A DNA stretch of 63,841 bases, counting the filler, from Cystobasidiomycetes sp. EMM_F5 (Eukaryota), in NCBI GenBank assembly GCA_051047955.1. It is 3 parts of 3 records of this genome, joined end to end, with 100 filler letters (N's around TTAATTAATTAA, not from the genome) between each part and the next. Parts side by side here need not be neighbours in the genome. Positions count along the whole stretch, not along the records: positions 29,646 to 57,644 come from JBPGPT010000069.1; 2 more parts are not named here. One strand, given 5' to 3'. Every line of letters starts with the position of its first letter. Position 1 is the first letter of the stretch. This document shows positions 29,646 through 55,400 of the stretch, one piece after another. The translations under genes were made by a program, and so were the position numbers. The notes beneath the pieces are model-generated. The model did no database searches, had not been told where the DNA came from, and was given only the letters and a program-made list of their open reading frames with translations.

Positions 29646-32600
29646 AGAGACGGCCGGCTTGACCCTTTGCAAGTGATCGAGTTTTTGGTGTGCGTGACAC
29701 AAGACATGGCGGTTTGCAATGTAACTTACTTCATAAGCGGCCTGACCAAAACAATGATGGCGTAGATAATGTGGCTAGCGCAATCGTCACTAAAATGGAC
29801 GTTGTATCGTACGAGACCAGTTGCGCTCAGACATTTGCTGTAGCCGGTGGTACTCGAGATCTTGCCATTCCATATGAGAATCGTCCTAAGGACAGCTGCA
29901 TTGGGGTTGCGAATAGTCTCCGAAGCAATCTCTCCTCCCCTTTGAGGCGGACCGTGTGCGAAATGGCGATAATACCTCAAGAGTGCTTCCAATTTCCAGA
30001 CGCTATGAAGAGCTGTCGCCGCTGCAATGGTAGAGACAGATAGATCTGAAGCACGGTAGCTGGGCAACAGGAATCGATCGATGAGACGCTGATCTCCGAA
30101 TATCTTGCGGATGAGCAGGCTCTGTAACTCCTTGATGCCGAGGTTGGCATCATTGGAGAGGAAGTTGGCCCCGCGATGGGAATGAACAGGAGTATCATGT
30201 ATACTGGACAATGGCGGCAGAAGATTAAATATTTCAGACAGCTCCAGGCCCAGACAAGCCTCTTCTAAAAGCTGTAGCATGTCATTCCTGATAGTACCAG
30301 TGAGGGTTGCAGCAGTCGTTGTCCACGAATAATGACTACCACTCCACGTGAATTGGTGTGGCATGTCTATCCACAGTAATCGAGGGACTGGTGTGCTCGC
30401 CATTACAGATTGCAATACGAGACCTGCTAGCGAACTGAGGTGGTCAAAAATGGTCGGGCGACCTATTGTGATAAAGTATTTTGCTTCCAACATTATGCCG
30501 TCGTGCACGCTCTGTAGGTTGTCGACGTCGGCACGTTTGACCCCCGCATGATATGCTAACAAGCGAGTGATGTACCTGGTTGCTGCAATTAGACTGGATA
30601 GACCGCGAGGATGTGCGAGAACGGCACTGTCTTGAAGATACTGTGGGTCGCCGACCACTGTATTGGAATAGCCCGATGTGATGAATCGAGAGGCACGTCT
30701 GACGGGCCGCGCCGATATCATCGACAGAGCCAAAAATGCGACGAGTGGGTGACGAATACCATACCCTACGGTGAGATGCGTCTTCTTCGGCAGCAGTACC
30801 GCCGCAAGCAAGTCTATAATAGCAGATTGAATTGGAGTGAGGCGACGGTGGAGGTAGCTGTGTTGGGAGGCGGCGTCATAGCTGGCTGGCGCTTCGACAA
30901 TATCCAGGACAGCTTCGATGAGAGAAGCGTCCCCTGGTACCGCTTGCATCATTAGATCGCGAGCGGCTAGTCGAACGATGTTGCCTGCCAAAGTACTGTC
31001 GCTATCTCGCTCGATTGCCTCCTCAGGTCTCAACACTGCTCCAGCATCATCGTCGTCGGCAGTATCATCTACCCCTTCCCCAGATCCATCCTGATCTTCG
31101 TCGTCATCCTCTGCATCGTCTATCATAGGCTCCGACAGGGTAGCGTCCAGCGTTGGTAGAAGAGGAACGGCTACTTGTGTACTGGAAGAAACTAGCGTAC
31201 TTGTGGCGTATGAACCAGCTGAGCGACGAGGACGTGAAATGGGATCTTTGCGCTGTGTACCGTGTAGCATAGACTGCGGTAAAGACTGTACCTCTCCTGA
31301 ATTTCCGTCCATTTGCAAAGGGGCGGTATGCTCGGTCTGAGCCGATGAGAGGCTAAGAAAGAGGTCGAGGAGGGCAGAACATGCGTGCCGAGCATCGTCG
31401 CTTAGCGTTATGCCGAGGCCATCGACAACTGCTGGCGTCCAATTGGTCTGGCAATGAGCCGTCGAAAACAGGTCGTCGCGCATAGAAACGGAAGAGTAGT
31501 CACGAACTGAGCTCAAGGAGCCCTTACGTCAGTCCCTGGCACGTTCTGGAACATTCAAGAACATTACGTCATCATAGAATGTTCTGGAACCCGGTGGAAC
31601 CTTGTGGAACATTCTGGAACTTTTGCCACATAGAAGCTTCTGGAAAGTTCCAGGCTGCACAGCCACCGCCACCTACCTGTAATATAAAAGATTACTCTTC
31701 TGTTGTATCTCTCCTTTCCTTTCTTCAGTTCAGATCTTGCCTAGTCAACCCCTAGTGGTGGTCTAGTTCAGTAATACATCCCTCTTCCTCTTTATACCCC
31801 AGCCTGGTAGTCGCCTGTCGCCTACTCAGCTCCTCCTTCTATTCCACCTTCCGACAAGAGTTCTGCGAAGCCGAGTGGACGCGAAGATGCCATAGGAGTA
31901 TTCGTGTAGCGACGTCGGCGTAGCGGTGAGCAGTACTGGTCTCTTGCAAGCGACGGAAATTCCGCACAGATTGCGATGCAGCCTCCAAGCTGTAAATTGA
32001 CAGATGTCAGCGGTATGTTGCACCCTGCAGATTAAGAGGGTCCTTACCCCGTCATGGTGTCGGTACGATCAGCCATTAACAGCTTGCGGTCGTGTATGTC
32101 GGCCTTGGCAGCTTGTTCCATCAAAAGCATGAACAGCCCTCGGACCTCCTTTCTGAGGACAAACTCTGCAGACCTCGTGTCGGTGAGAGACAGAGGATCT
32201 GGCATAGTAAGGTTCCTCACTAGTCCAGGGAATTTAGCAACAGCTACGTTCCAGCCCAGTACATTCCAGACCGGATTTTCCACGTGTGCTGCTACGCCGC
32301 CAGACGAGGCCATCCTGGCTTCGAGTCCACGCTGTTGACGCATAACAGCATCGATAAGAGTGAGAGGAGCTAATGGCGGACGCTCGACCACAAATCCAAG
32401 CGTAGGATCGTGTACATTTGTGGGGTTTGGTGCGAGTATCCTGCGAGCGATATGCAAACGGCTGATATCCAGAGTAGCTCCACGAGATGCATAGTCCGTT
32501 ACCGCTCGATGAAAGGCCGAAAGGATCCATCTGTCAACTTCAATGTGCTTGGGCTTACCGGCCACCCACATCGTTTGATAAACGGGTGTGGAGAGGCCTG

Positions 32601-33823
32601 GTCCCAACCCGTTCTCATTGTCGTTACGACGCTGGTTACATTGTCCCTTGCCGCAGCCAGAGCGCTTGTACGAGTCGCGATTGGCATATACCGCCTTGCA
32701 GATTTCGCAGGACCATCCGTCAAACGACAAAGATGCGCCTTCCAGCGGCTGAGTTGGTGCTATGCGCGCATCGAATACAGAGGAGTCGGCAGCGGCATGA
32801 TAGGAATCTTCGGGCCCTGTCGACTGTGTGCGATGAGAGCACAGCAGTCCACAAGCGATATCGGATCGAGGGTGGGCAGGGACGTCGGGTTCAGAAGCAG
32901 AGCAGTCGGAGCAGAGTTTGAAGCGAGCGATGTAGGCGTCCACGACGGATTCAATAATGCTACTGCTCTTGTGCGTGTCGCTGTGGTGAGTGCGTATGAC
33001 ATGTGTCGCGGCTGAGCGTCCTACGAGGAGTCGGCGGCAGTCGCGGTGCGAGCATATGAAAACGCCTCCGTAGGATAAATGGAGGTATAGGCCGCACCCT
33101 ACTAGATCTGCAGGGAAGCGAAGTAGAGATTGGTCTGGATCTACAGCTACGGGCATGGTAACTAATCCCGCCGCATCAGGTATCCAGTTTGCAGCCGGCA
33201 AGGGTGGAGCAGCCGCAGCAGCCTGAGAGCTGACGATGAGAGTCAGACTTTCGTCGGCATTCGCGGAACTAGCTCCTTCTCTATGCGCTGGAGAGGCATT
33301 CGCGGATTGTGAGTCGTGTTGATGCAAATTCCACGGTGGTAACGGTGGCAGGCTGGCTGAGGAGATGGCAGGCGCTGATGACGGACGAGTAGGTCCAGAT
33401 AGCTGTGCTATAGTCGGCAATGCAGTAGTGTTTAATGCGGAACTGGTGTCTGGACTGACGTCGATGAGAGACGCAGGGGCCAGACGCCGCTTGTGTGAAT
33501 CGGGAACGTCATCACTGTTAAAGGATGTATCGGCCTAGTTGACTTTAATATCGCCGTTCTAAGACTCACCCAGTCCCGTAGGGTGTACACCCGTTTGCGA
33601 TCCATTCTTGCTCGGTGGCAATAGGGCCAGGTATTGAGAAAGTACCAGCGGGAGCGCACGAATGTGCACGCCTTGCAGCTCTCTTGCCTTTAAAGACCCT
33701 ATCACAAAGAGGGCATGTGTAGTGCTCGCGCGAGGCCGGCATAAAGACTTGGTACTGGAGGGCGTCCCATCCTATCATAAAGCCGTACACGCCGTCCGCG
33801 GTAGAATGGGTACCAGCAGACAT
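29646..33823 (-). pseudogene. Large spliced gene: Zn-finger/OrsD(DUF3505)-like N-terminus plus the region found upstream of fungal telomere-linked RecQ helicases, with a tyrosine-recombinase-like motif; disrupted by an LTR and running into the gap
   Basis: ATG 33823 (CPLCDRVF..HSC) splices in frame (GG|GTGAGT..AACAG|T) to ORF 32044-33420 (ICSHRDC..HVIRTHH; CEIC..RDSYKR), then intron 32047-31991, exon FRRLQETSTAHRY, LTR, and ORF 29726-31516 with HFAHGPPQRGGEIASETIRN..RTILIWNG..TGYSK..LVRP; intron donor GTAAGT at 29729. Confidence 0.7.
31527..31856 (+). mobile_element. Solo-LTR-like insertion
   Basis: Ends (C)GTCAG...CCGACA; nGAAn arrays, TATAAAAG at 31683 and a pyrimidine-rich tract; sits between two exon pieces of the host gene; no TSD found. 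Confidence 0.65.
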
Positions 33824-34445
33824 AATAAAGGAACGAAAGAGGGCGGCGGTTGCGAGTTTGCATATAGAGAAACTGTTTGTGTTGTCCAGTAGAGGTGAGC
33901 AAAAGTGGGGGATGGTGGCGTGGGGATAATACAGAGGCAACATCAACAAGCAACAACAAGCTGGGACTTAGTCACTTCGCATGTGCACTGCATTGTACTA
34001 CTCTACAGTAGCAGCTGATCTCGCTACAAAGCAAACATTACAAACAGGACGTACACCGTGCGCACTGCGGTTGCAAACGAGTGACTAACTCGAGGCGCTG
34101 ACGCCTTTCGGAAGCGGCTACGGGAGTCTTGGGGTAATTCATGAAAGGCGCTGCATTCCGGAGCGTGTCAGCGTACCAGATAGAAAGAAAAAAATGGTGG
34201 CTGGAGAGCATCTTACTAAGAGCGCAGGAGGGTGCAACAAAGGCGAAGTTAATGGATGGGTAGGCGACTAGAAAACGACCATTCACTAGCGGCGCCGATG
34301 AGAGGCGCACGCATAAGTAGAACTCGTGGCCTATGTGGAATGTGTAGCACCGTGTATGTAATCTCAAACGATGTGTAACAGAAAAAGCGAGAGTGCCGGT
34401 CAAAAGCAGAGCGAGGAGCAACACCGGCTGTCAAATGCATACACG

Positions 34446-36041
34446 TCAAGCCAACTCCTTGAACCTTTGAATGGCAGCATTGCGCAACAGGTCGAAACGG
34501 CTCCAGCTGAGAATGGAAGCAGTCCGCTCAGCTTCGGAGAGGGTCGTTGCGTTGAGGGCCGCAGTCAGACTAGCGAGGTCCGATACCGCGGCCATTTTGA
34601 AGCATTTTGTGGGCTCCGCGTCGTAAAAGGCCATGTACCACTTATGCTGCGGAGTTGGGCGTTTCGCCTCATTGAAAGCCGCTGTGAGCTAGGGTGTTTT
34701 ATCAGACGCCGTGATTATGGATGGACAGCCTACGACGTACTTTCATCGGTCCAGCGAGATACAATGCGTTGTCTTGGAGAGTCATAACGCTCGGGTAGCC
34801 AGCTACGTGAACCCAGCCTTTACAGTTGTCGGAATCTACGAATGCGATGTTGTGTTGAGTTCCGTTTGGGCCGACATGGTGCTTGCTCCCAGCATGATTG
34901 TACTTGACTACTGAAAAGAATGACGAGGGCAGGCTCAGCCCAGCCTGCTGTGCACAGAACAGAGTGTGCTGAGTCTGAAGGTGAATTTCGGGTCAGGTGG
35001 CATCTGCACGAAGGCAAACGAGGTGAACCTACAACGATACGTGGATCGCCATTGACGCCGTAGTACAGGGGCAGATTGTTAAGCAACTCCTCTCCAAGCT
35101 TCTCCGCCTGGATTTGCAGGTCGGTGAGAGACCTTACAAAGCCGGGCAGATCCCCTGAACTCTTGCTGAGTTTCCATTCGCTGTTGCTGATGACAGCGTC
35201 CATATCGCTGCACATGCGCACGGCAATGCCGATATCGGCCAAATCTGTATTCCATTCGTCGCCCTGCTTGCAAGGGTCCCAGAATAAGGGCCTAACCGAC
35301 TCGTATGTTGCCCTACGGGTGTCGAAACCGCCCGCGCTGATTCGAGTTGGCGACGCGCTTGCCAGTAGACGAAGAATATGACCCGCCTGTACTAGATTCT
35401 AAAGATCCAGACGAAGCGATTGAGAGAGCACGCTTGTGGAGGGGCGTAGCATCGATGAGAGACGTACCACCCTGCACTTGCGCTTGGAGATGAGTAGTTG
35501 GTGAGGAGGAAGGACCACGGGCAGGAAGGACGGTAGAGTTGGATACCGGAACGGGATTCTCGCCCGTCATCGGGCTAGAAACAGCCAGCAGAGATGCCGG
35601 GGGGCTAGGACCGCTGTAGGAGAATGCAGATATGTTAGCGCAATGTAGCAAGCTGTACTATCAAACCTACTCTGCGACGCGAAACGGCGAGGTCGCTTCT
35701 GCCAGGGCAATGAGGCGATCCTGCTCAATTTCGTTGGGGTCGGGACTGGACGTGAACGGCCAGCCCGAGTGAGGATCCAGGCCTAAAAGCGTGTAGATAT
35801 CTCCGCCTGGCGGATACTGTCCCTCTCGGAGCCATGCTGGCGCTTTCATCGCGATAAATGCCTGGCAAGGGAAGGCGCGCGGCCTTTTAATGCCGTTGGA
35901 AAAAATGGGACTGGAGTGCTGGCGAGAGGGATGGAGGCTCAGGCCATCGCGCTGGAGTGGATGCAAGTGGCCAGGGCTGCAAGGCAGACGGAACGGAGGT
36001 GGAGAGGGGCGCAATGATAGATTATGGATTTCGATGCTCAC
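34446..36041 (-). CDS. Probable spliced hypothetical protein (island cargo); structure uncertain
   Basis: Chain of co-oriented ORFs (35667-36041, 35313-35651, 34820-35242, 34446-34634) ending at GT-like donors; no recognisable domain. Confidence 0.4.
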
Positions 36042-36846
36042 AATAGCCTGTATATAAGTAATACAATGGTACTACTGTCCAATCCTATCTCCTTTGCGTA
36101 GTCCAGCTTAGGCCTGTAGTTTATGAATCTGCGCAACCCTCACACCAAATCCAGGAGCACCCGTATGCAAAGCTGGGGCGGCGAGTCAGCCGTACAGGGC
36201 CATGTCGATGAGAGACATGGCACACTGCCGTTGCTATTGTTGACATGATAGGCTGCGCCTGAGTGGGGGAGGGCAGAAGCACAATCGATCAGCTACGATT
36301 GTCTAGACGTAAATATAACGCGATTTACATGTGCTACTTCACCGTGTGAAGATCCTGTGTAGATGTAGCAGAGCCTAGCATGTGCATCGAGACCGTATTT
36401 ACACGCATGACTTTACACAGAGAACAGGCTAGTAGGACCACTAGCAGACGAGTATCCGTAAAACTACCGAAAGTACGCCAACTCTAGCGTGGACAGACTA
36501 ATGCAGACCTCTGATTTCACTGAACGTCGGTACATTTACTACAGGCTCGGGATGTTTACGCAAAAGGAGAGACTAACCGTGAAAACGAGGAGATTGTATG
36601 ATTGGAAGTCTGCAGGGGCGAGCACAAGCGATGTCAGAGCCTCTTGCCTTGCAGAGGGTTGACGTATTCAAAATACTTACGGAAAGATTTGAAAGCTGAG
36701 CGAGGAGACAATGCGGCGAGCAGAGACGATGAGAGTCTCATGCCAAAGGCGCCATCGGGGAAACAGAAACGGTGTGGGGATTCTCGCTGCTGCATGTAGA
36801 ATGCCGAAGCCAGCAGAGTGGTAGCGAGCAGGACGGGCACGTACGC

Positions 36847-39800
36847 TCAAAGTGGGACAAGGCCAGTCTTGGAATACGGAGAAACACTGACTGTCGGCCA
36901 TTGAGGAATGAGATTGCCAGAGTAGTCTGCAGTGTGGCGATGTCGCTGGTCGACGTCGTTGCGGCTGAGCCTGAGTGGAGCACGAACAGCCGGTGTTGAC
37001 CGTGTAAGCAGTGCGCGCTCCTCGACGCCCTCTCTCAGAGGAATGACGTAGTGTTTGCCGCCATCGCTGGAGATGTGCTGGATGTTACAGTCTGCTACGA
37101 CGACATCGGCCTCTTCGGCGTTGTACCCGAGTTCGCTAATGATTTCCGAAAGGTAGGGGAACCCTGGTGACACTCTCATGTCCCGAATGATTCCCTCGGG
37201 CATGGGTCGCACTGTTGATGCGGTCGACGCCGACGATGCAGAGGTCGATGAGAGACCTACTGCAGCCGATAGCGGTTGCCAGCCTACGGTGTGTGTGCGG
37301 GGAGCCGGAGAGGTACTGGATGGGCCCTTTGACATATACGCCGCCATTCCGAAAGGATCGTCTTCGTCATCGTCGTCGTCGTTGTCGTCGTTGTAAGTGG
37401 ATTCAAAAGTCTCCCGCTTCCTCTGCCTGCTCTTTTTGCCCCGCCTACGTCGCTGCGATTGAGCGGGCATCTCATTCACCGGCGGCTGGGCCGGAGCTGC
37501 CTCTGCGAGTCTGAATTAGCCAGAGGTATCGCCATGCTAACGGACGACATGCTCACCATTCGTTGAACTACCGAACAACTGGCCGTAAGCTACCCTGCGA
37601 CGGTTGACTTCTGCGTCGGTATGGCGGGGTCTGGCGATGCTGCGAATCAACCAAAACAAAGCCCGTCGGCCTTCCTGATCAAGAATAGGTGCACTGTCCA
37701 AGCCGGGAACCATTAAATACAGTCGTTCGATGCAGCAACTGTACATGCAGCCTTGGAATTTGGCGATATAGCCTGGGTCTTGCAGATATGGAGCTCCGAC
37801 GTGCCGACCGACGCTGAAGGAATTGACGAGCCATAGCTCTTTGAGATTGTGCAATTCTTCGACGAGGCAGAACCAAGAGAGACACGGCATGTCTTCCACG
37901 ACCAGTTTTGTGATGGTTTCGAAGGCAGGGATATACCAATGGCGTACAAAGTCCGTCCGGAACAGACCGACAGGGTCGTAGTAAGGACCTCCAACGAGAA
38001 CCAAGCTTGTAATACCGCGACACGAGGAGAGAAAGTCGAATAGCATCCACTCGTACACATAAGGGACGACGCTGTCCTCGAGGCGGGAGCAAGAGTGCTG
38101 TACGCGAAAATCCAGTGACAGACTGTGGAGGAGAACATACGCGCGAGATTTTGTCGAAGGATAGTCGGAAATGTAATGCCTCCATTGGGTATCAAACTGC
38201 TGCGGCGTACCTACGATGCCCGGCATGTTGTATCGCTCGCCAAAATCCCGGATGTATGCTTTGGGGTATAATGGCCCCGTCTCGCCTTTTCCGTCGTTGT
38301 ATAGCCGAAGGACAGACAGCAGAGACTCAAAGGCATCGATGGAGCGGATTTTGAGCGAGATACCTTCGGAAACAGACCCTCTCCATTGCAGATTCCAAGC
38401 ATTTGGCCGCTTGATAGCATGCAATGCTGCCAAGATGTTCCAGCTTCCCAAAGATATTGCCAACAGCGAGCTGGAGCGAGCTTCCCACGTCGACAGAGTG
38501 TCGCTGACTGTAGTGCCGCGCCAGACAAGAGTTGAGCGCTCAAGAGCGGCTCCGTAATTGGAAGCTGCGTCGTCTGGGTGAGAGGCTACGCCGTAAGTGA
38601 GCAGAGCTTCTGATGGGAACGGGAATCCTAGGTGCAACAAATCGTCCAACACGAGCCTAAGCCCATGATCTTCGACGACGTTGTCTATATGTACTCCGGC
38701 ATAATGCGGCGTCTCGTGCGATTTTGGATATCGGTTATGCAGATTGAAGAAGATGGCCTCGCGTATCTGCACGAATTTTGGCAATGGATTCAAGAAACGT
38801 AGGCTATCCCAGTCGGATTTGAGGGTGCTCGTTGGATATTGCGATGGCGACGCCTCAGGGGCTGCGGAGAATGCAGTGGGTCCAATGCGTGACTGTACGA
38901 GTGTGAGTGCGGCAGCGGCAGCTCGAGATGACGGCTTTGATGGAATGATGTCGACATCTACGGCCGGTTTTCCAGCAGTGCTGCCTGAATTGAGAGCTAC
39001 TTTGGCGGAGGCTCCTGGTGTCGATGAGAGACATTGTTCACCTGCCGGTTCGCTGACGGTCGAAGGGATGCGGGACACAACAGGAGAGTCGACGGGCTCC
39101 TCGAGTGACAATGTCGATGAGAGACATATGTCTAACCCGCGAGCCAAATCAGCGGAGCCCGTCGATGAGAGACGACTTGCCGATATGGAAACTGTCGGTA
39201 GTGTCTCGCACTCGACGACATGTTGTACTGTAGCGACGGCCTGTCGGGACGCATTAGATTAGTGAAAAGCTGGTTGCCAATAGTAACGATAACGGACCGC
39301 CTGTTTGCCGACGGGCAGTTTCAACGTTGGAGAATGTATAACCGAGCTGGCCGGTGTGGGCAAAGTATTGCTTGAGCTGCTGCTGCTTTGAGAGGTGGAC
39401 CTATCTATGGCGACCGATGAGGGGAAACTGTGATAGCAAAGCTCATCAGCTACTAGAATTGCGAAAGTGTACTAAAGCACGTACTAATCCTCGGGACTAC
39501 ATTCATGGAAAGTATCATGCGACGCGTTGCTGGGAGAAGGCGGCAGACGCAGTCCAGATTTGTCGGCTGTAGAAGGCAAGGGGGTGAGAAATCTAGACAG
39601 GCCGAGCGCGTCTATGTCTTGCTGGGATAAAAGGGCGGGCCAGAGGATTGCGGGCTCGCCCATTCCCGGAAAGTCTGATGGGAGTGGCCGAGCAGCTCCA
39701 GGGCGTGTTTTGATCCATGCTATGAGACCGAGTCGCAGGCAAGCACTAGCTGCTGCTCTAGCAGCGGCGTCCCTCGTACGGAAAACATCGCCGGGGTAAG

Positions 39801-41369: not shown

Positions 41370-41370
<1 letters not shown>

Positions 41371-41410
<40 letters not shown>
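41371..41410. repeat. (CTG)13 microsatellite
   Basis: Read directly; the paralogous position 48387-48401 has about 5 units. Confidence 0.95.
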
Positions 41411-42779: not shown

Positions 42780-45700
42780 CTAGATCCAGCCGTCGTCTTC
42801 GGTATTGTACGGTGGTGGCTGATTGATATTGTTGTAATTAGTTTGTCCCCAAGTCGACGTGCTGTGATGCTGAGTATTGTAGCCATGAGAGGCAGTCGGA
42901 GGGTACATAGTGCGAGCAGACTGCTGATGGCGATGACTGGATCCATGTTGACGGTTGTCGGAGTAGCTGTGGTAGCTGCCTGGATTGTGATGATAGTTTC
43001 CGCTGCCATTGTTCCCGTAGTAGCTCCCAAACTGTCCGGCTGCATGTTGAGGAGGAGCTTCATTGAAGTGGGCAGACGTATACGGGGAAGATGCATAGCC
43101 ATTATACGACGACGAAGGGTGGCCTGAGTGGGACGTAGACGACTGCAGAGCGTAAGACTGAGGGCGTGGCTGAGCAGTGGTATGCCACGAGTCTTTGAAG
43201 AGGTTTGGCGCATTACTCGGACGACTGGCAGGGTATGAGCTACGGCCATTGGATCGGCGATTCGAATTGTTGGCTTGACTGATTCTAAAGGCCTCTTCAA
43301 CTGACACGTAGGGCGACACGTCCCTTTCGGGATGTTGGGGTATCGCTTCAGCATCCGTAGGGGCGAACCTGGAGTCGCTTTGGTGCTGAATGTCTACGTC
43401 TAAGCGAGTCATAAGTTTTGCGTCCGACTGCACTTCGCCCAAAGGACGAGTGTAAAGAGCCCTCTCCAGTACTCCTGGCCGTATGCTGGAATGAACGTAA
43501 AAGTCTGCATCGGATGGCGAAATGTACTGAATGTCGCAGTCAGCTACGTTGACGTCGAAAGCCTCGCCAGGAGAAGACAATTCCTCGATGAGCGCTGCGA
43601 TATGATTGAAGCCGGCCGATATACGGACGCGACGCAGGACATGAGGACCTATCTTGGGTATCACAATAACCGGGGTCGATGAGAGACCCACTGGCATGTT
43701 GCTATTCCCTGCAAACGACTTCTTGGACGGGCGGTAAAAGTCGGCATCCAATTCGCTGTCCGATGAAGTATCGTCGTCTGTGCCCTGTCTCTTCTGTGCA
43801 ACCTTCTTGCGCTTTGAAGCCGCTTTCGACGGCGCAGGACCAGTTACAGCATTGCCTAGGCCATCGGTGAGACCGACAGGCTGTCTTCAACTGACACGTA
43901 GGGCGACACGTCCCTTTCGGGATGTTGGGGTATCGCTTCAGCATCCGTAGGGGCGAACCTGGAGTCGCTTTGGTGCTGAATGTCTACGTCTAAGCGAGTC
44001 ATAAGTTTTGCGTCCGACTGCACTTCGCCCAAAGGACGAGTGTAAAGAGCCCTCTCCAGTACTCCTGGCCGTATGCTGGAATGAACGTAAAAGTCTGCAT
44101 CGGATGGCGAAATGTACTGAATGTCGCAGTCAGCTACGTTGACGTCGAAAGCCTCGCCAGGAGAAGACAATTCCTCGATGAGCGCTGCGATATGATTGAA
44201 GCCGGCCGATATACGGACGCGACGCAGGACATGAGGACCTATCTTGGGTATCACAATAACCGGGGTCGATGAGAGACCCACTGGCATGTTGCTATTCCCT
44301 GCAAACGACTTCTTGGACGGGCGGTAAAAGTCGGCATCCAATTCGCTGTCCGATGAAGTATCGTCGTCTGTGCCCTGTCTCTTCTGTGCAACCTTCTTGC
44401 GCTTTGAAGCCGCTTTCGACGGCGCAGGACCAGTTACAGCATTGCCTAGGCCATCGGTGAGACCGACAGGCTGTCCAGGCTGAGTAACAGGGCGGTCGAA
44501 GAGTGGGCCATATGCTGCTCTGCGCCGGCGTACTTCAGCCGCCCCGTGACGTTGAAAGCCTATGCTCCTGAATAACCAGTAGAGCATCGCTCGCGCATTG
44601 TCGTCCATCGACCAAGCGTTGTCGAGACCGGATACTTCAAGTCGCAGCGACTCTATTCGACAATATTCGAGACGCCCTGCTGCCTTGGGAACGAAACCAG
44701 GGTCAGGTAAGCTGACAGCGCCTACGCTACGACCTGTCGAGAAGCAGTTGATTAAGGTAAGGCGCGTGATGTTTTGCGTTAGATTCAAGAGACAGTGCCA
44801 GGTTTGATAAGGCATGTCTCTTATGGACAGGGTGGTGAGGGTTTCCTTGCAGCCGATATGCCATGCGTAGACGAAATCTTCTCGAAAAAGGGCGACGGGA
44901 TTGTAGAAGGGACCGCCGACAAGATGTAGCGATTGCAAGCCGACTACGCACGACAAGAAGTCGAAGAGCATATGCTCGCTTACGTATGGAATTGTGACTT
45001 TATCCAGTGCCGAGCGTTGATGCTGAATGCGGAAATCTATGGCCAATTTGTGCAGTAGCACATAGGCTCGCCCTGCTTTAACGTAGCCCCCGCTGATGAA
45101 CTTCCACCACTCGTCACGAAATTGCTTTGGAGTTCCCCATATGCCCATCATTTGAACTTGGCTGCCGTAATCTTGGAGGTAAGCTTTGGGGAAGAGTGGA
45201 CCCGTCTCTCCTTTGCGGTCATGGTATAAACGTAGGACTGCCAGCAAGGACTCGAGTGCGTCGATGGACCGCAGCTTCAGAGCAATGCCTGTGTCTGCTG
45301 AACCGCTCCACTGAATATTAAACGCGTTTACGCGGCGGATGGAATGTAGAGCGGCCAGGATGGACCAATTGCCCAAAGAGATTTTGTCCAAAGCGGCTGT
45401 CCTTACTCCCCACGTTTCTAGCGTCTCCTTTGTCTGACTACCTGTCCATACGAGTGTCTGTCTGGCGGAAACAGCACCGTAGTTGCGGGCTGCATCGCTC
45501 GGTGGAGATTCCTCGCCGTAAGTGATGAGCGTTTCGCGAGGAAAGGGAAAAGGTAGTGTGAGCCGCTCATCGAGTGTAGCTCGCAGCGCTATGTTGTTGA
45601 TTACATCGTCGATGTGCACGTTTCCGACATCTAGTACTTCGTCTTTGCGGGGATAACGGTTGTGCATCGAATGGAAGATGGCGCTACGTGCGTCGATGAA

Positions 45701-47967
45701 TGTGGGGAACTTTACGAGCGGACTGAGGAGCTCCCAGTCGGATTGGATAGTGCTCGTAATCCCGGAGGGGTCGAACGGCAAGGGAGGGGGAGCGAGTAGA
45801 ATCCTAGACGCAGCAGAGATAGCTGTACTGGATGCAGTTGCCGCTCTTGCTGCTAGGTCGACTGGGACGTGCCCGGTGAGCTTCATGCCAGGCTTCCACT
45901 TGATTCTCCCCGACTTTGAAGCTACTGAGGCCGATGCTACTGATGTCGATGAGAGACATTCTTCGCTAGCCGGTTCACTGACAGTGGATGAGACGCAAGG
46001 GATCGAGACAGTATCATCTAGTCGCGGAGAAGGCTTGCTTGGTGATGGCAATGTCGGTAACGTGCTCGTTTCCTGTTCAAGTACATCGCCAGCTACTAAT
46101 GTCGATGAGAGACATGTTTCGCTGGGTAGTGCTGTCACTGCAGCTGCCACTGATGTCGATGAGAGACACTTTTCGCTTGCTGCGGTGATAGGAGGAGACT
46201 CTGGACGAGTAGCGGTTTGGTGCTGCGGGAAGCCAAAGTCAGCGTAGGCGGTATGAACGAATTTGGGTAAAACGCACAACTACTGCCACAGCCGGTGAAT
46301 AGGATGCCTCGCTGCCGCTCCAGTCGAGCTCTTCCGTGTCCACGTCCATGCTATGGGCAACTGACATAACTGGTGCTCTGAAAAGAACAAAACGAGTCAG
46401 TGGATTGGAAAAAGCGGTGCATCATGGCTTACTTTACTGCATTCTGTGCAGGTGGTGACTGGGGCGTGGGCGGTTCGTCTATATCCATTGATGAATCTAA
46501 TTGTGGGCCGGCTGCCAAAGACTGGGCGGGCTCAGCCGCAAAACTCTCGCTGAGCGGCGTCAGAGGCGAACTAGGCGTAGGAGGAAAGGGAGCCGATTGA
46601 ACAGAGGGGGGTGTGTATGGCACTAGAAAGTCTGCTAGTCCCAATGCGCTAATCTCAGCTTCGGTGGCAGCTGCTGGCCAGCGGTTAAGCGGCGGTCCTG
46701 TACCCGGGAAATCGACGGGGATGGAATGGGCAGTGCTTTGTAGTCTCCTGACCCAGCCTACTAGTCCGAGTCTCACGGCGGCGTTCGCAATCGCCCTTGA
46801 TGCGAGTTCACGTGTTCGAAACACTTCATTCGGACCAGCTGCAACCACTAAGCAGTCTCCCAAGGGACCGATGATCTCGAGGAGGGGCCAGTATGCGTTG
46901 ACCAAACCGGAGGTATGCTGTGAAGCGGCATTCTGGTACGCTCGATGAGCGGCACGGCCCGTATTTGCTGTGGTAGATGTAAACGTGGACGGAGTCCATG
47001 ATTCGTATGGAGCCAAGCGTGCTTCGTGCGGATCAACTGTTTGGTCGATGTAATAGTAGCCGGCGACAACGTGGTAGCTGAATTGAACGTCGGGCATGAG
47101 TTTTGAGAGGAGGAGAATAATGAAGGCTGCGTTGCAGTACCCGGGGATAACATCGTCGGTGAGAGACGGTTCCCATGCGGGGCTTGTCCAATTAGCGGGT
47201 GCACTCCTAAACTCTGCGACGATTCTCTCTTCTGCTCCGGTTGGTGAGTAAAGGTGGTTCGCTATAGCCCAGTAATCGTCCTGCTGAAGCGCGTTGGTCC
47301 ATGCTGCCGCATCGTGTCCCGGTACGATTCGAAGATGTGGTGGGTCGGGGCCTACAATCATGCAGATTGAGCCTTCCGTCAGGAATAAGTGGGTACGTGG
47401 GTCCAGCGGCACGACACGCTTGAAGCGATCTGTTACTTGATTTCTTGAAACAGAGGTAGGTGGAGGCTGTACGCCGAACATCTGTCCGAGACCTCTCAAC
47501 GTGGCCTTGATTTGCTGTTTCGTATGCACGCCGGGCGTCATAGCAATGCGATCCCAGCCTTGATCGTTGGCTGTCACGCTGTTGTAAGTGTGATATGCGA
47601 CGCTGGGTGTGGTGAGAAAAGTGCGAACACCGCTAGCGGGTGTCAGATGCACTGTCAGCTGACCTATCGTAATCTCGCGGCGTTGCTGCCTATGTTCATC
47701 GGCTTCGAGGCTGGACCGGATGTATTCCAGCTTGGTCAACGCTCGAGTAGGTGCGGAGACGGGATGGGGAGTGCTGTGAAAGAACTGCAGCCTTGAATCG
47801 GCCTGTTGCATAGTGAAAAGGTCTGTGATCTGAGCTCGGACATGTGCTGATATGCCTTGGCCGTCGAAAGCGGAATCCCACAGCTCGGCTGCATCTTGGC
47901 CAGTCAGAAGGGCACCGTCTACATAGACGTCTGTGCGACTGGCTACTAGCTCCTTGATTTCTGCCAT
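42780..47967 (-). CDS. Unknown large protein, copy B (same architecture plus a Y/N/Q/G/S/H-rich tail); frame broken by a 590-bp tandem duplication
   Basis: ORF 46429-47967 joins ORF 43856-46279 through in-frame introns 46432-46378 and 46277-46223; tail in ORF 42780-43751; shares MAEIKEL..DVYVDGALLTGQDA, DDVIPGYCNA..LLLSKLMPD and MLFDFLS with copy A. Confidence 0.75.
43294..44475. repeat. Apparently perfect 590-bp direct tandem duplication (43294-43885 and 43884-44475)
   Basis: Identical text at offset 590, identical ORF translations (43491/44081, 43679/44269) and a 2-bp TC microhomology at the junction. Confidence 0.97.
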
Positions 47968-50628
47968 TCTCAGAGACGAGCGGAGAACGCGCAGTGACTT
48001 CGATGAGGGAAGTGCACTGAGCGTGTAGGAAGGGGTGCAGCCTGTTCAACTTCGATGAGAGAAGTGTGAAGCAGGTGTGAGGGAGAGGAAGGGAGCGAAT
48101 GGCTGGACTGGCTCCGTCGTGCTGGAGTGGCGTGCTGTAAGACGGGTCGAGATTAGCGGATGTAAGAACGAATGGACTGGGAGGGCATCGTCGATGGGAA
48201 TTGGATGGTGGAGAGTAGTGGATCACTGGCTACTACTCGCCGTCACTCCTGCTACGGTGACTGCCGAGGTAGAGCGATTCCAAGGCTGACGGCGAACGCG
48301 GCGGAGGTGACGGACGGGCGAGCGGCAGCAGATACAGACACAGTTACAGCACTGTCGATGAGAGACAGTGCTATACTATGCCTGAGCTGCTGCTGCTGCT
48401 GCCGCTGCCCTGTCTGCGCTCATCATCTGAGAAGGGCGGGTTTGTTTACTCACCTGGCGGGACGGGAGCAAATGGAGGGAGGGCGAGTTTGGTATCGATA
48501 TGATGCTGCTGACGGTGGTATCGTAATGCTGGAGCTGCTGCTGGTGGTTGTCGTCGGTCGGCGCTTGCTGGGGGTCGAGTTGGTTGGAGTTTGAGGGAGA
48601 GGGGCGGGGAAGGGGCTGGCAGCTGGCGACTGCGTACCGGCGACGGAAGGACAGAGGGCATGGATATGATTCAAGGGCAGCAGTCAGTCATCACCACGAA
48701 TGCTAGTCAGCTGCTGCTGTGCGTCTCTCATCGACGCTGGCGGGGGCTGATGGAGTTGGGTGGGCGGGCGAGTGGAACACTGAGCAGGTCAAGGGAGGAG
48801 AGCAGCGGACGAGGGTGAATCTGGTACACGTTAATCAGTGCTTGGACGTGGCTGATCAGCTGTATCTGGACTGCGGGGCTGCCGGTGGTGGTCGCGGCTC
48901 AGCATCCCAATGGACGTATGCAGGGAGCACAGAGCAGGCTGAGCGGCAATTGGCAATGTGGTACTGACTATACTGATGCTACTGACTATCACTGAGTACA
49001 CTGTTCCCTCTCCCGTCTCCTCCCGACCTGCCGAATTTGGAAACGGCCGTACTACCCCTGAACGAGTTTCGACGCGAGTTACGATGCGGAGACGCGTAAC
49101 TTGGGTGTGATTAGCCTCACCGTGATGTGCACTGAGAGTATATGGTGTTGCAGGAGGTTTGAGCACTGTTTGACGGGTGTATATCTGACTGGCTATGACA
49201 AACAGAGCTGGGCGAGCCTACAACGGATATCTGAAGCCGTAACTGAAGCTATAGGCTGGTTGCAAGCGTGGTATGATGCTGCCGTGTGTGTGACCTGTCT
49301 CAGCTGGATGTCTGTCTCTCATCGACAGCTCCGAGCGGGATGGCGGGGCTAAACAGATGTGAGCGCCTATGGGGGTGAGAGGATGGGTAGAGAATGGCGC
49401 TGTGAGTGCCGAGGTGATGCTACTGCCTGTCTGATGTGACTGGTCGCTGATTTACGTGGAAACGGTGATGTTTGCGGCGATGAGGACTGTGACGGCTAGG
49501 CTAGCGTGGGACTGGAGCGTAAGCGGACGTAATAGATGAAAGTGCACTGTCGTTGTGCATAGTATGCATGCGTGTCGGGAAGCTGTCTGATGTCGTGTCG
49601 ATATCTGTCACTGTAGCTTGAAGTGGCTAGCTGGGTTGTCTGACGACTACAACATGGGAATACTATGAGACAACGGCGGACCTACTACAGTATGGTACTC
49701 TCTGTAATGCTGCTGCGGCCACTCCTGTCCTGGTCATGCCTCTCATCGGCAGCAGTGGGGGGTTGCATGAATGACTTGCCATGCGGGCCTGCACGGAAAA
49801 GCGACGGTAGTCTCGAGTAGGGGAGGGAGGACAGTGTATGCAGGCAGACTGCATCGTGGGAGATGGTTAAGCTACTGTCCGAGCTGGAATTGTCTCTCAT
49901 CGACAAACTGTGCTCGGCTGTACAGTAGTTTGGCTGGGGGGCTGGTGGTCTGGGTGAGCGAGCTATTTGCGCAGACTGACACTGATGCTGAGGATTGGGT
50001 ATACAACAGACAATTGCTACATCGTCGTGCTATACTCTATTGCGCTGCCTGGAGTCTTGCACTGTGTTATGGTCTCGTCTCGTTGGGGCTGTTTTGATTC
50101 TACTGGAACAGGGTAGAATGTCTCGAATCGCTGTCAGGTTGGAATACTAGCATATACTACCTACACACACTGCTCTCATCGCTGCTGCTGCTGTGTCTCT
50201 CATCGACACTCAGTGCTGTTGGTGGTTCTATGGCGTGCCTGGGTGGCAAACGTCGAAGGGCAACAGCGCCGTCAATAAACATCTTGGAGAGCTGGGAATT
50301 GCACTGAGTGGCTAGATACAACGTCTGAGGGTACTGTCTTTGCCTGCTTCGCTATATCGGTGCTGGTTGCTGTGCTGTTGGAGGTCCGAGCTCCTCAGTG
50401 AGGAAAAAGGACCGAAGTTGTTATCTCTGGCTACAGGAGTGCTGGAGATTTGCTGTTTGGTATGGAGATTCTTTGACAGTGCATGGCGATGCTCCGAGAC
50501 TTATACGCTCTTCCGGCTGCTGGGTTTTCTGCAATGCAGACTTGAAGTTTTCTCCCCATGTTTGCCACCAATTTTTGGACTTTGCCACCGGAATGGGGGC
50601 CCATTCCTGGCAGTATATAAGTAGGTTC

Positions 50629-51688
50629 CAGAGTGTCCGTAACTCACGCACGAGACACTCTGGAGGCGGGAGGTTCTGTGTACTGGATGTCAGCGCCCTT
50701 CAAGTCGTCTGCGATGGGCCAGCACCTGCGATATCCAACTTTTCTGTCATTGTCATGCAACTTGGGGAGGTCGGTGCGTTGGACCTGGTTGACGACGAAG
50801 CTCTGCGACTGCAATGCTGATGCTGCTGCTATACACAGATATCATTGTTTCTTGACTGTCTTTCTGATTGTAGGTGCTGAGCTTGTTATGATGTCTGGCT
50901 GGCCCGTCTGCCTGACGAGAGTGGACTGACTTTGAATGACAGAGCTAGTCTTTTCGGAAGTGGTTGCTCGCTACTTTGCTGCGGTTCTCAATATATATGA
51001 TGGATCTCTCTCCGTGTTCTGGCTCTTTATCTCCGCCTTCCCCTGCTTGCGATTCCGTCTATGCTTTTCGTGCGGTCCAGTCTATTATGACGATAAGCAT
51101 TGCTGATAACGCTCCATGCTGTCTACAGCCTTGCTACATTCACTCTATCGCTGGCTTCTCCCATCTACCTTCTTTTGAGATGACTGCGACTATTACTTCG
51201 GTTCGAGAGCTATGACACGGATCAGGAGACGGTAGAAGGACATGGAGGATGGGCCTAGACGTGTGATTTGAAGTAAAGAGTTGATATTGGTGCGCCCTGA
51301 TGATGACTACATGGTCTGCCTCGCTGGGTGTAACTCACGCACATCCAGCGAGTGCATGATCTGGCTTTGCCGTCATCAACAATGAGCTAAACTGCGGACT
51401 CCCGACCTGTGATTACAGATTCGAAGCAAGGACACACGGCATCGACGAATGTACGGCTACCCGACTACTGTCTTGAATACGGTTGTCGACGCTTTGCTTA
51501 TTCTCCACAACGACCTCGGCTGCTACTACATCAGTTCAATCATCGACACTGTGTGCGAATCTATCACATCAACACACTCTCCTCTCCATCGTCTGTGCAA
51601 CTCACGCGCATAGACTCGTAAGTCGTATACACTAGTAACTCACGCACTAGGTGTACGCAGGGCTACACGTAATTCACGCACGTGTAGC
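50629..51688 (+). repeat. Stem-loop family 2: five hairpins with 9-nt loop AA(C/T)TCACGC and unrelated 8-13 bp stems
   Basis: 50629-50663, 51320-51352, 51591-51615, 51624-51657 and 51662-51688. Confidence 0.9.
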
Positions 51689-52439
51689 TGGCGGAGGATG
51701 CTGATGGTCTTTGATATACGGATAGCCAAACTATGGGTCGCGTCTCTGCTTCTCCACCTTTGGTTGCTGTGTTTGGTACAGCTGTGGTGGTGACTTGCGG
51801 GGCATTCTGGGAGGCAATACTACGGGTTTACAACGTTGGCTTAAGACTGTACACTGGACACCTGCTCTGCTTGATTGGCTATGCTACACAGTATTGCTCT
51901 GCCTCTATGCTGGTGGCGGAATACAGCGACTTGACTTGACTTCATCGGATGGCTACGAAACTTGGTATACATATAGTTCACTTCTCTTACATTGCTATGA
52001 ACATGCCCGGATGACTGGAAACATCTCTGCCTGGATGCTGTTGGTGGTATTATGTTCGTGCCTGGCTGTGCCTGGCTGTGCCTGGTGGCGACAGCGGCGT
52101 ACAATAACTCTGTCAATATACATCGTCGGCAGCTATAAGTCTGCACTGAGATTCTTCATAACATTTGAAGCAACTTTGTCTATTCAGTTTTCTTATATCG
52201 CTTCTGGTTTGGCTGCAATTGAGACTTTTAGCTCCTGAGTGAGAAAATTGGGCGAATCGCTGTAGCTCAGTCAGTATTAACGCTGGAGATCTATAAGTCT
52301 CGCCTGAGATTGTTCTGCTATGCTACAATCATGCTTGCTTGTCTGTTTGTCTTTAGCGGCTCTAGTTTTTGTGCAAATGAGACTTGAAGTTTTTCAGTAA
52401 CGATCAGGCACAGCGCCCATAAGTTCTCACTTTCTACAT

Positions 52440-55400
52440 TATATGAGTAGGGGTAGCCTTTCCAGTGTACGAAGTAGTCTAGTCGTCCGTGATTGAGTCG
52501 AGAGTCAAGTGTCTTTTCGACGATGTACTTGGGTGTGCCGTTCTCGACGATGGGATCGGGAGGGGGAACGACCATGCGTTGCGGATGTACATTAGAGACA
52601 TACTTCTCGAGAAGGGACACATGGAAGGTAGGGTGAATGCGCATAGTACCGGGAAGGAGGAGGCGGTAAGCTGAGGAACCAATCTTCTTATCGATTTCGA
52701 ATGGTCCTAACTTCTTAGCATCGAGTTTGGAGGAAGGACGAGAGGTGGAGATGTTTCGACGAAGGAGCCAGACTTTATCGCCAGGTTTCCAATTGGGAGC
52801 GGGGAGGCGACGTTTGTTGGCCCATAGACAGTGTTGAGAGTGAGCATGAGCGATAGATTCTTGCGCGAACTCGTGAGCTTTGTTAATTCGTACAAGTCGC
52901 TTCTCAATATCGGGAACAGAACAATCATCAGCAGTAAGCGATAGTCTAGGATGATACCCATGGTTGGCATAGAAAGGGGACATGCCTATAGTCGAATGAT
53001 GTGTAGAGTTGTAGGCAAATTCGGCTATAGGGAGGAGGTCGACCCAATCATCTTGCAGGTAATCACAAAAGAGGCGAAGGTGTAGCTCGACTGATTGATT
53101 AGTGCGTTCCGTCTGTCCATCGGTCTGAGGATGAAAAGCGGTAGAGAGAGCAGGCTTGACTTTGAGCATGGTGATGAACTCGGTCCACCATTCGGATGCG
53201 AAGGTGGTTCCACGATCAGAGACTATATCATTTGGCAGACCATGTAGCTTCCAGATATTGTTAAGGTACTGACGGGCAAGATCGCGAGAAGTATCGGTAG
53301 CTTTGGTTGGAATGTAGTGTGCCATCTTAGTTAGTCTATCAACGACGATCAAGATGCTATTGTATCCTTGGCATCGAGGCAGGTCGGTAATATGATCCAT
53401 GGAAAGGGAGAGCCAAGGTCCTTTGGGGATGGGAAGAGGCTGAAGCAAACCATAAGGGCGATGATGAGCGGCCTTACTTCGCTGACAAGGGTCACAGGAG
53501 TTTATGTAGTCATTGATGAAAGCTCTCATGTTCGGCCAATAGTAGTTGCGGCGAATGATCTCAAGAGTCTTTGCTTGACCGGGGTGTCCTGTCTCCATTG
53601 AGTCATGAGCTAGCTGGAGGATGCTGACGCGTATAGTCTCGTAGTTCGGAACATAGATTAGGCCACGAGATAGGAGGATACCGTCATTGCTAAGTGTCCA
53701 GGCTGGATCAATGGAGTCCCGATTGGCTTCAGGATCTTGGAGTACGGCGAGGATGTCATCGAGGGCAGGATCACGTTGCTGGAATAGTTTGATATCGGGT
53801 AACAGACGTGATACGGAAGAGTGCAATGTGACTGCCGAGATTTCGAGAGGACGAAGTAGCTGCAGTGGTTCGGTTTCGCTAGCTTTTCCCCCCGCTGCAA
53901 AATCGGGACGACGAGATAAGGCATCAGGTTTACCGGACTGATCACCCGGACGATACTTGATAGTATACTTGTGGTGATTGATGATCTCTGATCAACGAGC
54001 TTGACGACGAGTGAGAGTCTTCGACGTCTGGAAGTATTGAAGAGCTTGGTGGTCGGTCAATATGGTGAACGGTAGTGATAAGCCTTCGAGATAGTGTCGC
54101 CAGATCTTTACAGATTCGACAATTGCAAGGAGTTCTTTATCGTGTATTTCATAATTTCGCTCGGCGGGGTTCATTTTACGAGACATGAATGCAACCGGAC
54201 GCAAGACAGTGCCGTGATACTGAGATAATATACCGGAGATTGCGTAGTCGGATGCGTCTGTCTCAATGAGGGAGGGTAGGGCGGGATCATAGTGCGAGAT
54301 GACTTGACCCAAGCTGAAAGATTCCTTTATCGAATTGAAAGCAGAGCGAGCAGGCATGTCGAATTCGAACTTGACTTCTTTGCGCAGAAGACGAGTCATA
54401 GGAGCGATGATGCGAGAGTAACCCTTAATGAACCGGCGGTAAAAGTTTGCGAAGCCAAGGAATTGTTGTAGCTCGCGTACTTTAGTAGGTTCGGGCCAGG
54501 ACATTACAGAGTTAACCTTATCTTGACACATGGATACACCTTCGGGAGTGATGATGAAACCGAGGAACTCAACAGTAGTGACGTTGAAGACACACTTGTG
54601 ATTTGCAGCATACAAGTTGTTGTCAATCAAACGCTGGAGTACCTGGCGGACGTGAAGGGTATGTTGCTCAGGAGTGTCGGAGAAGATAAGGAGATCATCG
54701 AGGTAGATGAGAACGCAAACGTCGAGCAAGTCTCTGAACTTGTCGTTCATGAAATGTTGGAAGACTGCAGGAGCATTTGTGAGACCGAAAGGTATTACAA
54801 GGCATTCGAAGTGACCGTAACGAGTGCGAAATGCTGTTTTCCATTCGTCACCTTCCTTAACGCGGATGAGGTTGTAAGCTCCACGTAAGTCAAGCTTGGT
54901 GAAGATGCGAGCAGATCGTAGGCGGTCGAGAGCTTCGGGGATGAGCGGTAGAGGATATCGGTTCTTTATTGTAATATTGTTAAGAGCACGATAGTCTACG
55001 CAGAGCCTCAGCTCGCCGGACTTCTTCTTGACGAAGAGGATAGGAGCGCCGGCGGGAGACTGCGAAGCACGAATGAAGCCTTTAGACAGATTCTCATCGA
55101 GCCAAGTTGACAAGGCTTGAAGCTCGATTGCGGATAAGGAATAAAGTGGACCGTAAGGAGGTTGCTTGCCAGGCTCGAGATCGATAGATAGATCATATGG
55201 TCGATGAGGTGGCAGCACATCCGCTTTAGCCTTTGAAAATGCTGAGAGGAGGTCATGATACTCAGACGGAATGACAGCGCGCAGCGTATCAACGAAGTCT
55301 GGAGGGTCAGTCATATCATCAGGGAATGGAGCTGCCCTAAGCTCATCCGAGGAGATAGCGCTGAGCTCGAGAGACTTCTCCGAGTACATGAGAGTTCCGA

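Follow-up and report, generated by a model that had tools for sequence, protein, structure and literature searches.

A probable chromosome-end-type locus with a TLH-family gene and an array of covarying hairpins in Cystobasidiomycetes sp. EMM_F5

Introduction

Telomere-linked helicase (TLH) genes at the ends of fungal chromosomes have been on record since the 1990s. Their published architecture combines N-terminal C2H2 motifs, a TLH domain of about 250 amino acids and a RecQ helicase (10.1101/2024.02.27.582403), and the descriptions consulted regard the function of the TLH domain as unknown. Other reports supply the genomic setting: in Ustilago maydis, UTASa adjoins the telomere, with the OrsD-bearing UTASb upstream (PMC10532341); copies in Magnaporthe oryzae have their 3′ end toward the telomere, many of them being truncated or interrupted by stop codons (PMC1635262); in Fusarium subtelomeres, genes that combine OrsD/DUF3505, DEAD and Helicase_C occur in 20-24 copies that are hard to assemble (10.1101/2023.02.05.527183). 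The present work is concerned with a gene of this family in Cystobasidiomycetes sp. EMM_F5 (GenBank assembly GCA_051047955.1). It was met in a stretch of 63,841 nucleotides, here called the window, in which three separate contigs, A, B and C, are chained via artificial spacers, and it lies at the left end of contig B (JBPGPT010000069.1, positions 29646-57644 of the window).

A preliminary description had seen in some 23 kb of this contig a candidate giant mobile element built around a TLH-like, tyrosine-recombinase-like gene and unified by a code of hairpins. We give better than an even chance to another reading, in which contig B is a chromosome-end-type locus with a TLH-family gene and decaying orphan genes, and not a demonstrated mobile element. 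A TLH-type locus is, in itself, a known kind of object. Two of its features, a strand-transferase signature in the TLH domain and an array of hairpins spread around the gene, appear to be undescribed in the literature searched, and it is with these that most of what follows is concerned.

A TLH-family gene at the end of a contig

When 1.84 billion representatives were searched exhaustively with HMMER, 19 hits were obtained at E<=1e-3, one of which is the window's own protein. In the other 18, DEAD (6 proteins) and Helicase_C (4) are found downstream of the matched region, while OrsD is found upstream of it in 6/18; at E<=10, OrsD is recognized in 7/18 members of the alignment of this family, A2. 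The part matched in 17 relatives corresponds to residues ~300-599 of the main open reading frame (ORF) of the window. The order of the domains can be followed in P0007 (OrsD 250-344, match 620-902, DEAD 1155-1307) and in P0014 (match 76-366, DEAD 646), and the helicase parts of the relatives match RecQ5, RecQ4 and BLM in the PDB. A homologous-protein search with the A2 profile found P0003 alone, and a 'longer' search found none. Because the matched region of the relatives sits between the OrsD zinc finger and a RecQ-type helicase, the TLH-like reading of the gene is supported; from its position we infer that the region matched here is the published TLH domain. The window gene would then be the front part of a TLH-family gene, an interpretation that the comparison of sequences supports.

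In the window, the main ORF begins with an acidic low-complexity N-terminal part, followed by the first part of the TLH domain (~29732-30628). The motif that had first drawn attention to this gene is present, with HFAHGPPQRGGEIA at 29924-29965(-) and YSK at 29834-29842(-); its core Arg (29939-29941) is a candidate Arg I, and its core Lys (29834-29836) a candidate catalytic Lys. The gene had been said to run into a gap. There is no such gap within a scaffold: what had been taken for one is an artificial joint, N44-TTAATTAATTAA-N44, an identical copy of which is present at 57645-57744. TTAATTAATTAA is a palindromic spacer, and the Ns that flank it are not sequencing gaps. As the joint is artificial, position 29646 marks the end of a contig, and 1-29545 need not be its neighbour. 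The ORF itself stops at TAA 29726-29728, 80 nt short of this end. The stop is embedded in the consensus GTAAGT; its position is that of a Tyr in the closest relative, P0002, and weak similarity extends beyond it, so that one may read it either as an intron (GTAAGT) or as a nonsense mutation. Most likely, the gene was cut at the contig end since genes of this kind, being multi-copy, would break assemblies.

Zinc-finger motifs had also been attributed to the gene. Cys/His motifs do exist, FICSHRDC..H....HH (32983-33060) and WSCEIC..C....C (32638-32715), and they belong to a separate ORF upstream, the ORF that bears the motif having none itself. A profile made of six OrsD regions weakly matched residues 262-290 of this upstream ORF (P 0.02). 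P0008 is collinear with three pieces of the window, namely the ORF with the Cys/His motifs (in its C-terminal third), a small conserved exon and the main ORF; the E-values of these piecewise alignments come from tiny local databases, the whole-library E-value of P0008 being 1.9e-6. It is because of this collinear alignment with all three pieces that the upstream and main ORFs are probably one gene.

Between them lies a cluster of heat-shock-element triplets, where all the occurrences of GAAnnTTCnnGAA in the window are gathered: 6 were found against 0.43 expected, and 0/100 shuffles gave 6. Two TGACGTAA stand beside it (31524-31531 and 31564-31571). The cluster would belong to a predicted intron or to an internal promoter directly upstream of ATG 31483, and it looks like a stress-inducible promoter or enhancer within the TLH-family gene.

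When set against the described systems, the locus shows several likenesses. The relatives of the window ORF show the published order Cys/His (OrsD/C2H2), TLH domain, RecQ helicase. As in subtelomeres, the window gene adjoins an assembly break, a retrotransposon and lineage-specific genes, and the possible premature stop in the window copy recalls published TLH copies, often truncated or with stops. There are differences from published TLH genes as well, and these, with some other points, weigh against our understanding of the locus. No helicase is present in the whole window, where the contig ends first, at 29646; the window holds no TTAGGG telomere repeats; and the upstream zinc-finger ORF has no Pfam hit, OrsD included. 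The telomere linkage and multi-copy status of the window gene are matters that we infer, and this copy may be a pseudogene, given the TAA that stands for the Tyr of P0002.

A strand-transferase-like signature in the TLH domain

Conservation was counted in an alignment of 18 sequences, few in number, the distant members of which are 18-25% identical. The Arg of G-x-P-x-R-G-x-E (Arg I) and the Lys of Y-x-K are each conserved in 18/18, as are an Asn (18/18) and a second Arg (18/18). The Arg of [WYF]-R-[HQ] (Arg II), at a position beyond the end of the window copy, is found in 13/15 sequences, the other 2 having gaps there; a His (13/13) and a Tyr (13/13) follow, the Tyr coming nine residues past the His in 12/13. 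Arg II, His and Tyr are seen in the relatives only, their positions falling past the contig end in the window copy, which shows just Arg I and Lys.

The recombinase active site is described as a pentad of Arg, Lys, His, Arg and His/Trp, plus Tyr (PMC4381057). The order R, K, R, H, Y of the TLH domain is the same as in tyrosine recombinases (Cre, lambda Int, XerD and the fungal Cryptons) and in type IB topoisomerases, and XerD has the identical His-to-Tyr spacing of 9, in LLGHSDLSTTQIYTH. In the sequences that show Arg II, the residue at -3 varies among N, S, K, R and V and is in no case His. The remaining set, R-K-R-H-Y, corresponds to the pentad of the type IB topoisomerase of vaccinia, of which Arg-223 is named in the literature. 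The distance from Arg I to Lys, 34-36 residues, is longer than the 28 that separate R173 from K201 in Cre, and, unlike tyrosine recombinases, the TLH domain is fused, in the relatives, to a helicase. There is some analogy here with fusions and partnerships of a helicase and a strand-transferase, such as Helitron Rep/Hel, reverse gyrase and RecQ-Top3, in that the relatives combine, in one protein, a superfamily-2 helicase and a domain with a signature of the tyrosine-nucleophile type; those systems use other catalytic folds (HUH or type IA).

Profiles were compared with hhalign, the TLH side being made of the 14/18 sequences that cover the catalytic part, with 60 block-shuffled decoys, and the recombinase side (n=15) of all 13 PF00589 matches of Escherichia coli K-12, lambda Int and Cre. 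The path paired R with R, R with R, H with H and Y with Y over 168 columns (score 21.7, P 0.016), and 1/60 decoys reached the true score. With 16 recombinases, one having been added from a metagenome locus, the score was 23.1 and P 0.0093, with 0/60 decoys. In these alignments the core Arg is paired with the recombinase Arg I, the equivalence of the Lys being positional. The language-model neighbours of P0009 and P0003, two relatives that are just 22% identical in the aligned domain, fell in the same families, Phage_integrase, NDC10_II and Integrase_2, with scores of 0.84-0.85, which lie below the 0.9 mark and are a lead only, shuffled proteins often scoring as high.

It seems likely to us that the TLH domain is a true domain of the recombinase / topoisomerase-IB type. 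The alternative is that R..K..R..H..Y is a coincidence, and that the TLH domain is a non-catalytic DNA-binding or regulatory module of the RecQ helicase. There is substance in this objection: in Pfam at E<=10 no recombinase family appeared in any of the 18 members, and a sequence search of the PDB at E<=10 returned no recombinase either; the H-x-x-R His of strict-sense tyrosine recombinases is absent; profile comparisons are borderline at best, with P 0.11 for the whole domain against recombinases, P 0.61 against Cre alone (on a path that yet pairs Cre R173 and K201) and P 0.37 against XerD alone, on a non-corresponding path; and there are those language-model scores, and an alignment of 18 sequences only. 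By standard measures the recombinase link is not significant. We nevertheless find coincidence unlikely, as the residues that are strictly invariant at 18-25% identity are the five catalytic positions, in order and with a His-to-Tyr distance of 9 as in XerD, as two relatives 22% identical gave the same language-model families, and as the hhalign path is collinear across the whole catalytic domain. The proposal that the gene is tyrosine-recombinase-like therefore survives in part: R..K..R..H-x8-Y is invariant in the relatives that cover these positions, and the hhalign path is collinear at borderline P, whereas the Pfam and PDB searches and the missing His do not bear it out. No link of TLH genes with tyrosine recombinases was found in the literature searched, which did not include the key 2009 paper.

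An array of covarying hairpins

The hairpin code noticed at the outset is real. A covariance model gave 36 hits >=18 bits, all of them within 30910-50211, a span of 19.3 kb, the next best being 16.2 bits at 3488. Other counts lead to the same picture. The loop sequence, GATGAGA, occurs 42 times in the window, with perfect stems >=4 bp in 28 cases (exactly 5 bp in 19), all within 30917-50198; when one loop mismatch is allowed, there are 35 in the hairpin territory and 1 elsewhere (3495), when 100 Markov simulations of the contig gave 0.4 on average and 3 at most. The 13-mer GTCGATGAGAGAC, with <=1 mismatch, is found 24 times against 0.12 expected. Hairpins are absent from contig A (bar one weak site), from the retrotransposon at the right edge of contig B, and from contig C.

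Covariation was assessed in an alignment of 34 sites (the second copy of a 590-bp duplicate, the 35447 site and the contig A site being set aside), comprising 33 distinct sequences. The closing C:G is invariant, and pairs 4-18, 5-17 and 6-16 are kept in 33/33 with 4, 2 and 4 pair types, respectively; pairs 4 to 7 belonged to the rule by which sites were selected. The fifth pair, 3-19, which did not belong to that rule, is kept in 27/33, while the two outer positions, outside the rule as well, are paired no more often than chance would have it (9/33 and 8/33). None of 500 shuffles reached the observed covariation score of 0.55. Each stem forms a perfect helix of 5 bp, free of bulges, and RNAalifold predicted the identical five-pair stem. 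Between two tandem blocks of DNA with 55% identity, nine orthologous hairpins are kept, some of them showing compensatory changes in the stem (AGGTC/GACCT versus GGGTC/GACCC, for example), and hairpins are intact in block 1 despite its broken genes.

All of the hairpins located inside long minus-strand ORFs (20/20) share one orientation, with GATGAGA on the plus strand. Because their core is read in all three frames (12, 7 and 1 of 20), and because 13 more copies lie outside long ORFs (placement being counted over 35 hairpins), the hairpin is a nucleic-acid signal and not a peptide repeat. A repeated peptide motif (LSST) was discarded on these same grounds, and a palindromic double-stranded protein site was discarded as variant stems change on both sides together. 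The splice loop of Ire1 is CNGNNGN; neither with this motif, nor with those of the hammerhead core, the box C/D K-turn, or mimicry of a tRNA anticodon or T arm, does the loop agree.

Orientation changes along the array. As far as 48357, GATGAGA stands on the plus strand, 41729 and 42278 being the exceptions; at 48726-50198 it stands on the minus strand. The seven reversed hairpins make two groups (41729-42278 and 48726-50198), each just right of a conserved 800-bp segment. Orientation reverts to plus between 42278 and 42624, beside the 3′ end of gene C2 and ~0.9 kb right of the 800-bp segment. Such flips would be easier to explain by the boundaries of transcription units than by replication forks. 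Hairpin orientation would follow the apparent transcription units, the sense strand of which would read C-UCUCAUC-G, and hairpins may be seen as strand-specific signals that are recognized when single-stranded; the sense transcripts, or the non-template strand while transcription proceeds, would most likely be where they act. Since the flip back adjoins the 3′ end of C2, as would suit the limit of a transcription unit, the reading that places the signal on sense transcripts or the non-template strand is the one that we favour, while giving it slightly less than an even chance. Two considerations weigh against it. Typical stems are weak, -3.4 to -5.4 kcal/mol, and because of this weakness a protein partner would be implied; the rightward transcripts that transcription demands are hypothetical.

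The competing possibility is that hairpins act at the level of DNA, as single-stranded sites extruded by the TLH helicase or by replication and bound or cut by the zinc finger / strand-transferase of the TLH protein, which would make them the local equivalent of polar recombination signals. The strand-specific orientation with its block-wise flips, the restriction of hairpins to the DNA around the TLH gene, their retention where ORFs are broken and the need of weak stems for a protein all agree with it. The flip back between 42278 and 42624 nevertheless speaks more for places where transcription units end than for replication forks, and mismatches of the fifth pair, G:T versus A:C, number 3 versus 3, so that neither strand is picked. 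We regard action at the DNA level as doubtful, and recognition of hairpins on DNA unwound by the helicase would be less likely than recognition at the sites favoured above.

Two further observations concern the DNA in which hairpins are embedded. To the right, ~3.6 kb without any long ORF (48700-52300) begin with 1.5 kb that hold five reversed hairpins; GC skew is strongly positive there (0.27 at 48-50 kb), and the stretch may correspond to a rightward transcript or to decayed sequence. The plus strand, too, has open frames opposite the N-terminal parts of genes C1 and C2, at 38705-39262(+) (185 codons) and 45657-46247(+) (196 codons). These plus-strand ORFs read the hairpin core as a repeated V-D-E-R-H, and are probably a by-product of the hairpins.

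The hairpins share with integron attC sites, with rolling-circle single-strand origins and with viral packaging signals a conserved loop and closing pair, covarying stems and a strand-specific orientation. They differ from these systems in being present as 36 copies in nuclear fungal DNA, in ORFs (in three frames) as well as in intergenic DNA, with a fixed geometry of 5 bp + 7 nt. attC sites are imperfect hairpins at cassette borders. The suggestion that the array consists of integron-like folded single-stranded sites does not agree with this distribution, hairpins lying within ORFs and intergenic DNA and not at cassette borders.

Searches for counterparts gave little. Rfam at E<=1 returned no match for the hairpin, neither hairpin 13-mer was found in the literature searched, and published descriptions of TLH loci make, in their accessible parts, no mention of a hairpin array. 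When metagenomes were scanned for two CGATGAGAG at a distance of 35-62 nt, at least 121 stretches were retrieved; of the 120 loci examined, 3 showed one stemmed copy each, and a cluster was found in none. The hairpin model, run on 30 of the at least 121 loci (284 kb), gave 1 hit >=18 bits, in a locus chosen for its 13-mer. A viral scan for two 13-mers yielded 1 locus, a coding tandem repeat of 51 nt with 3-bp stems.

Coordinates and neighbouring features

Table 1. Position, strand and make-up of the features discussed, counted along the window
Feature	Position	Strand	Details
Artificial contig joint	29546-29645		N44 + TTAATTAATTAA + N44; stops in all six frames
Main ORF, TLH-family gene	29726-31528	-	600 codons stop to stop; first ATG 31483
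Conserved core	29834-29965	-	HFAHGPPQRGGEIA through YSK
Hairpin territory	30910-50211		36 copies, 17 nt: 5-bp variable stem, closing C:G, loop GATGAGA
Heat-shock-element triplet cluster	31544-31650		all 6 GAAnnTTCnnGAA of the window within 107 bp
Small conserved exon	~31848-31989	-	peptide RNFRRLQETSTAHRYADVATRILLWHLRV aligns with P0008 residues 204-232
Putative 58-nt intron	31990-32047	-	GTAAGG .. CTGAC .. ACAG; splice predicted from sequence
Upstream ORF, TLH-family gene	32044-33534	-	Cys/His motifs; C-terminal third homologous to P0008 residues 22-189
Tandem block 1	36728-42623	-	orphan genes C1 and D1, plus upstream non-coding DNA
Orphan gene C1	36847-39258	-	in-frame stop near 37516-37539
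Orphan gene D1	39484-41009	-	frameshift near 40200-40215
~800 bp upstream of D1	40916-41713		82-89% identical to 47931-48710 upstream of D2
Tandem block 2	42624-49330	-	genes C2 and D2, plus upstream non-coding DNA
Gene C2	42780-46279	-	disrupted by 590-bp duplicate
Exact 590-bp tandem duplication within C2	43294-44473		copies 43294-43883 and 43884-44473
Gene D2	46429-48045	-	ATG 47967
Ty3/gypsy retrotransposon	52318-57158	-	gag, protease, RT, RNase H, integrase, chromodomain

Much of contig B is occupied by the two tandem blocks (Table 1), which are 55% identical overall and ~45-55% in their coding parts. Both open with the same GAGAC-stem hairpin (36728 and 42624), and C1 and D1 are both broken relative to block 2. 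A word-based search among 5.8 billion proteins found, for family C, itself alone, and no third copy of the orphan genes was found. To judge by their alignment, the orphan families C and D are an old, diverged tandem duplication with one copy decaying. The two 590-bp copies in C2 are reported as 100% identical over 300 nt and shift the frame (590 = 3x196+2); they would stem either from a very recent event or from an assembly artefact. The ~800-bp segment upstream of D1 holds a (GCT)13.7 repeat at 41370-41410, and its conservation points to gene conversion or to a strong constraint, such as a promoter, an origin or a non-coding RNA.

The Ty3/gypsy element at the right edge has gag and pol ORFs that look intact. 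No pair of long terminal repeats was found within the contig: the 486 nt that separate gag from the contig end have no counterpart downstream of pol, and it is probably within the element that the contig breaks off.

The genes of contig A are of an ordinary kind, namely EPL1 and LIM-domain ORFs together with a weak match to Rua1_C, and no sequence similarity to contig B was found in contigs A and C. The end of contig A is AT-rich, with GC 0.42 in the bin 28001-30000, which also takes in the joint and ~350 bases of contig B, against ~0.52-0.55 elsewhere.

A chromosome end or a giant element?

That the region is devoid of housekeeping genes, as had been observed, is borne out: two Pfam scans of 29.6-52.3 kb, of 11 and then 13 ORFs, gave nothing above cut-off, the PBP1_TM match standing at 21.3 bits, under its cut-off of 27.8. 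Starships, with their DUF3435 captain, and other giant fungal transposons resemble contig B in having a long housekeeping-free stretch beside a recombinase-like gene; contig B differs from Starships in having no DUF3435 hit and neither termini nor target duplication.

The idea put forward at the outset, that these ~23 kb are a giant cargo-carrying mobile element with a TLH-like recombinase-helicase as its mobiliser and hairpins as its folded recombination sites, finds one feature in favour of a unit, the confinement of hairpins to 30910-50211, TLH gene included; the recombinase-like signature, fused to a helicase in the relatives, the lack of any known domain in the ORFs of the stretch and the identical hairpin that begins both tandem blocks can be added on the same side. 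We find the idea highly improbable all the same. No terminal inverted or direct repeats were found beyond the internal tandem blocks, no target-site duplications were found and there are no tRNA genes in the window; the limits of the supposed element are a contig end and a retrotransposon, its right end, placed at 52440, falling within the integrase ORF of the Ty3 element (52318-53991), when hairpins stop at 50211. Composition and codon use are host-like (GC 0.542 versus 0.525, CpG observed/expected 0.98 versus 1.03), hairpins lie inside ORFs in three frames and not at gene borders, and the 'cargo' amounts to two orphan families, partly broken. A foreign origin of the stretch was set aside on the same host-like composition and codon use. 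It is simpler to read the region as a TLH locus of subtelomere type, with orphan genes in decay, than as a giant element.

Mechanism and implications

If the TLH domain is what its residues suggest, a mechanism may be outlined. The zinc finger would position the TLH protein on DNA, the RecQ motor would unwind it, and the TLH domain would cut and rejoin one strand through a 3′-phosphotyrosine link; a helicase-strand-transferase fusion of this kind would serve recombination at chromosome ends. The gene would be switched on by stress, since the heat-shock-element cluster precedes ATG 31483. Carried to its end, this line of thought would make of TLH genes a previously unrecognized class of selfish chromosome-end elements, associating a zinc finger, a tyrosine-recombinase/topoisomerase-IB-like strand-transferase and a RecQ helicase, and extending in this lineage over at least 19 kb. 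The DNA or the transcripts of such an element would be marked by a strand-specific hairpin of 17 nt that its own protein would read when single-stranded. We hold this extended view to be quite improbable.

The stakes are nonetheless worth spelling out. The hairpin array has been matched to no described element: it combines an exact geometry with covarying stems and a consistent strand, and it was kept through 45% divergence and gene decay. Were TLH genes to be selfish elements of the kind just outlined, this would be a eukaryotic counterpart of hairpin-guided recombination. Should the TLH domain turn out to be a phosphotyrosine strand-transferase joined to a RecQ motor, the TLH proteins could break and rejoin DNA themselves, which would provide a direct mechanism for the recombination-based rescue of telomeres and for the spread of subtelomeric DNA, and would reopen the question of the mobility of TLH units.

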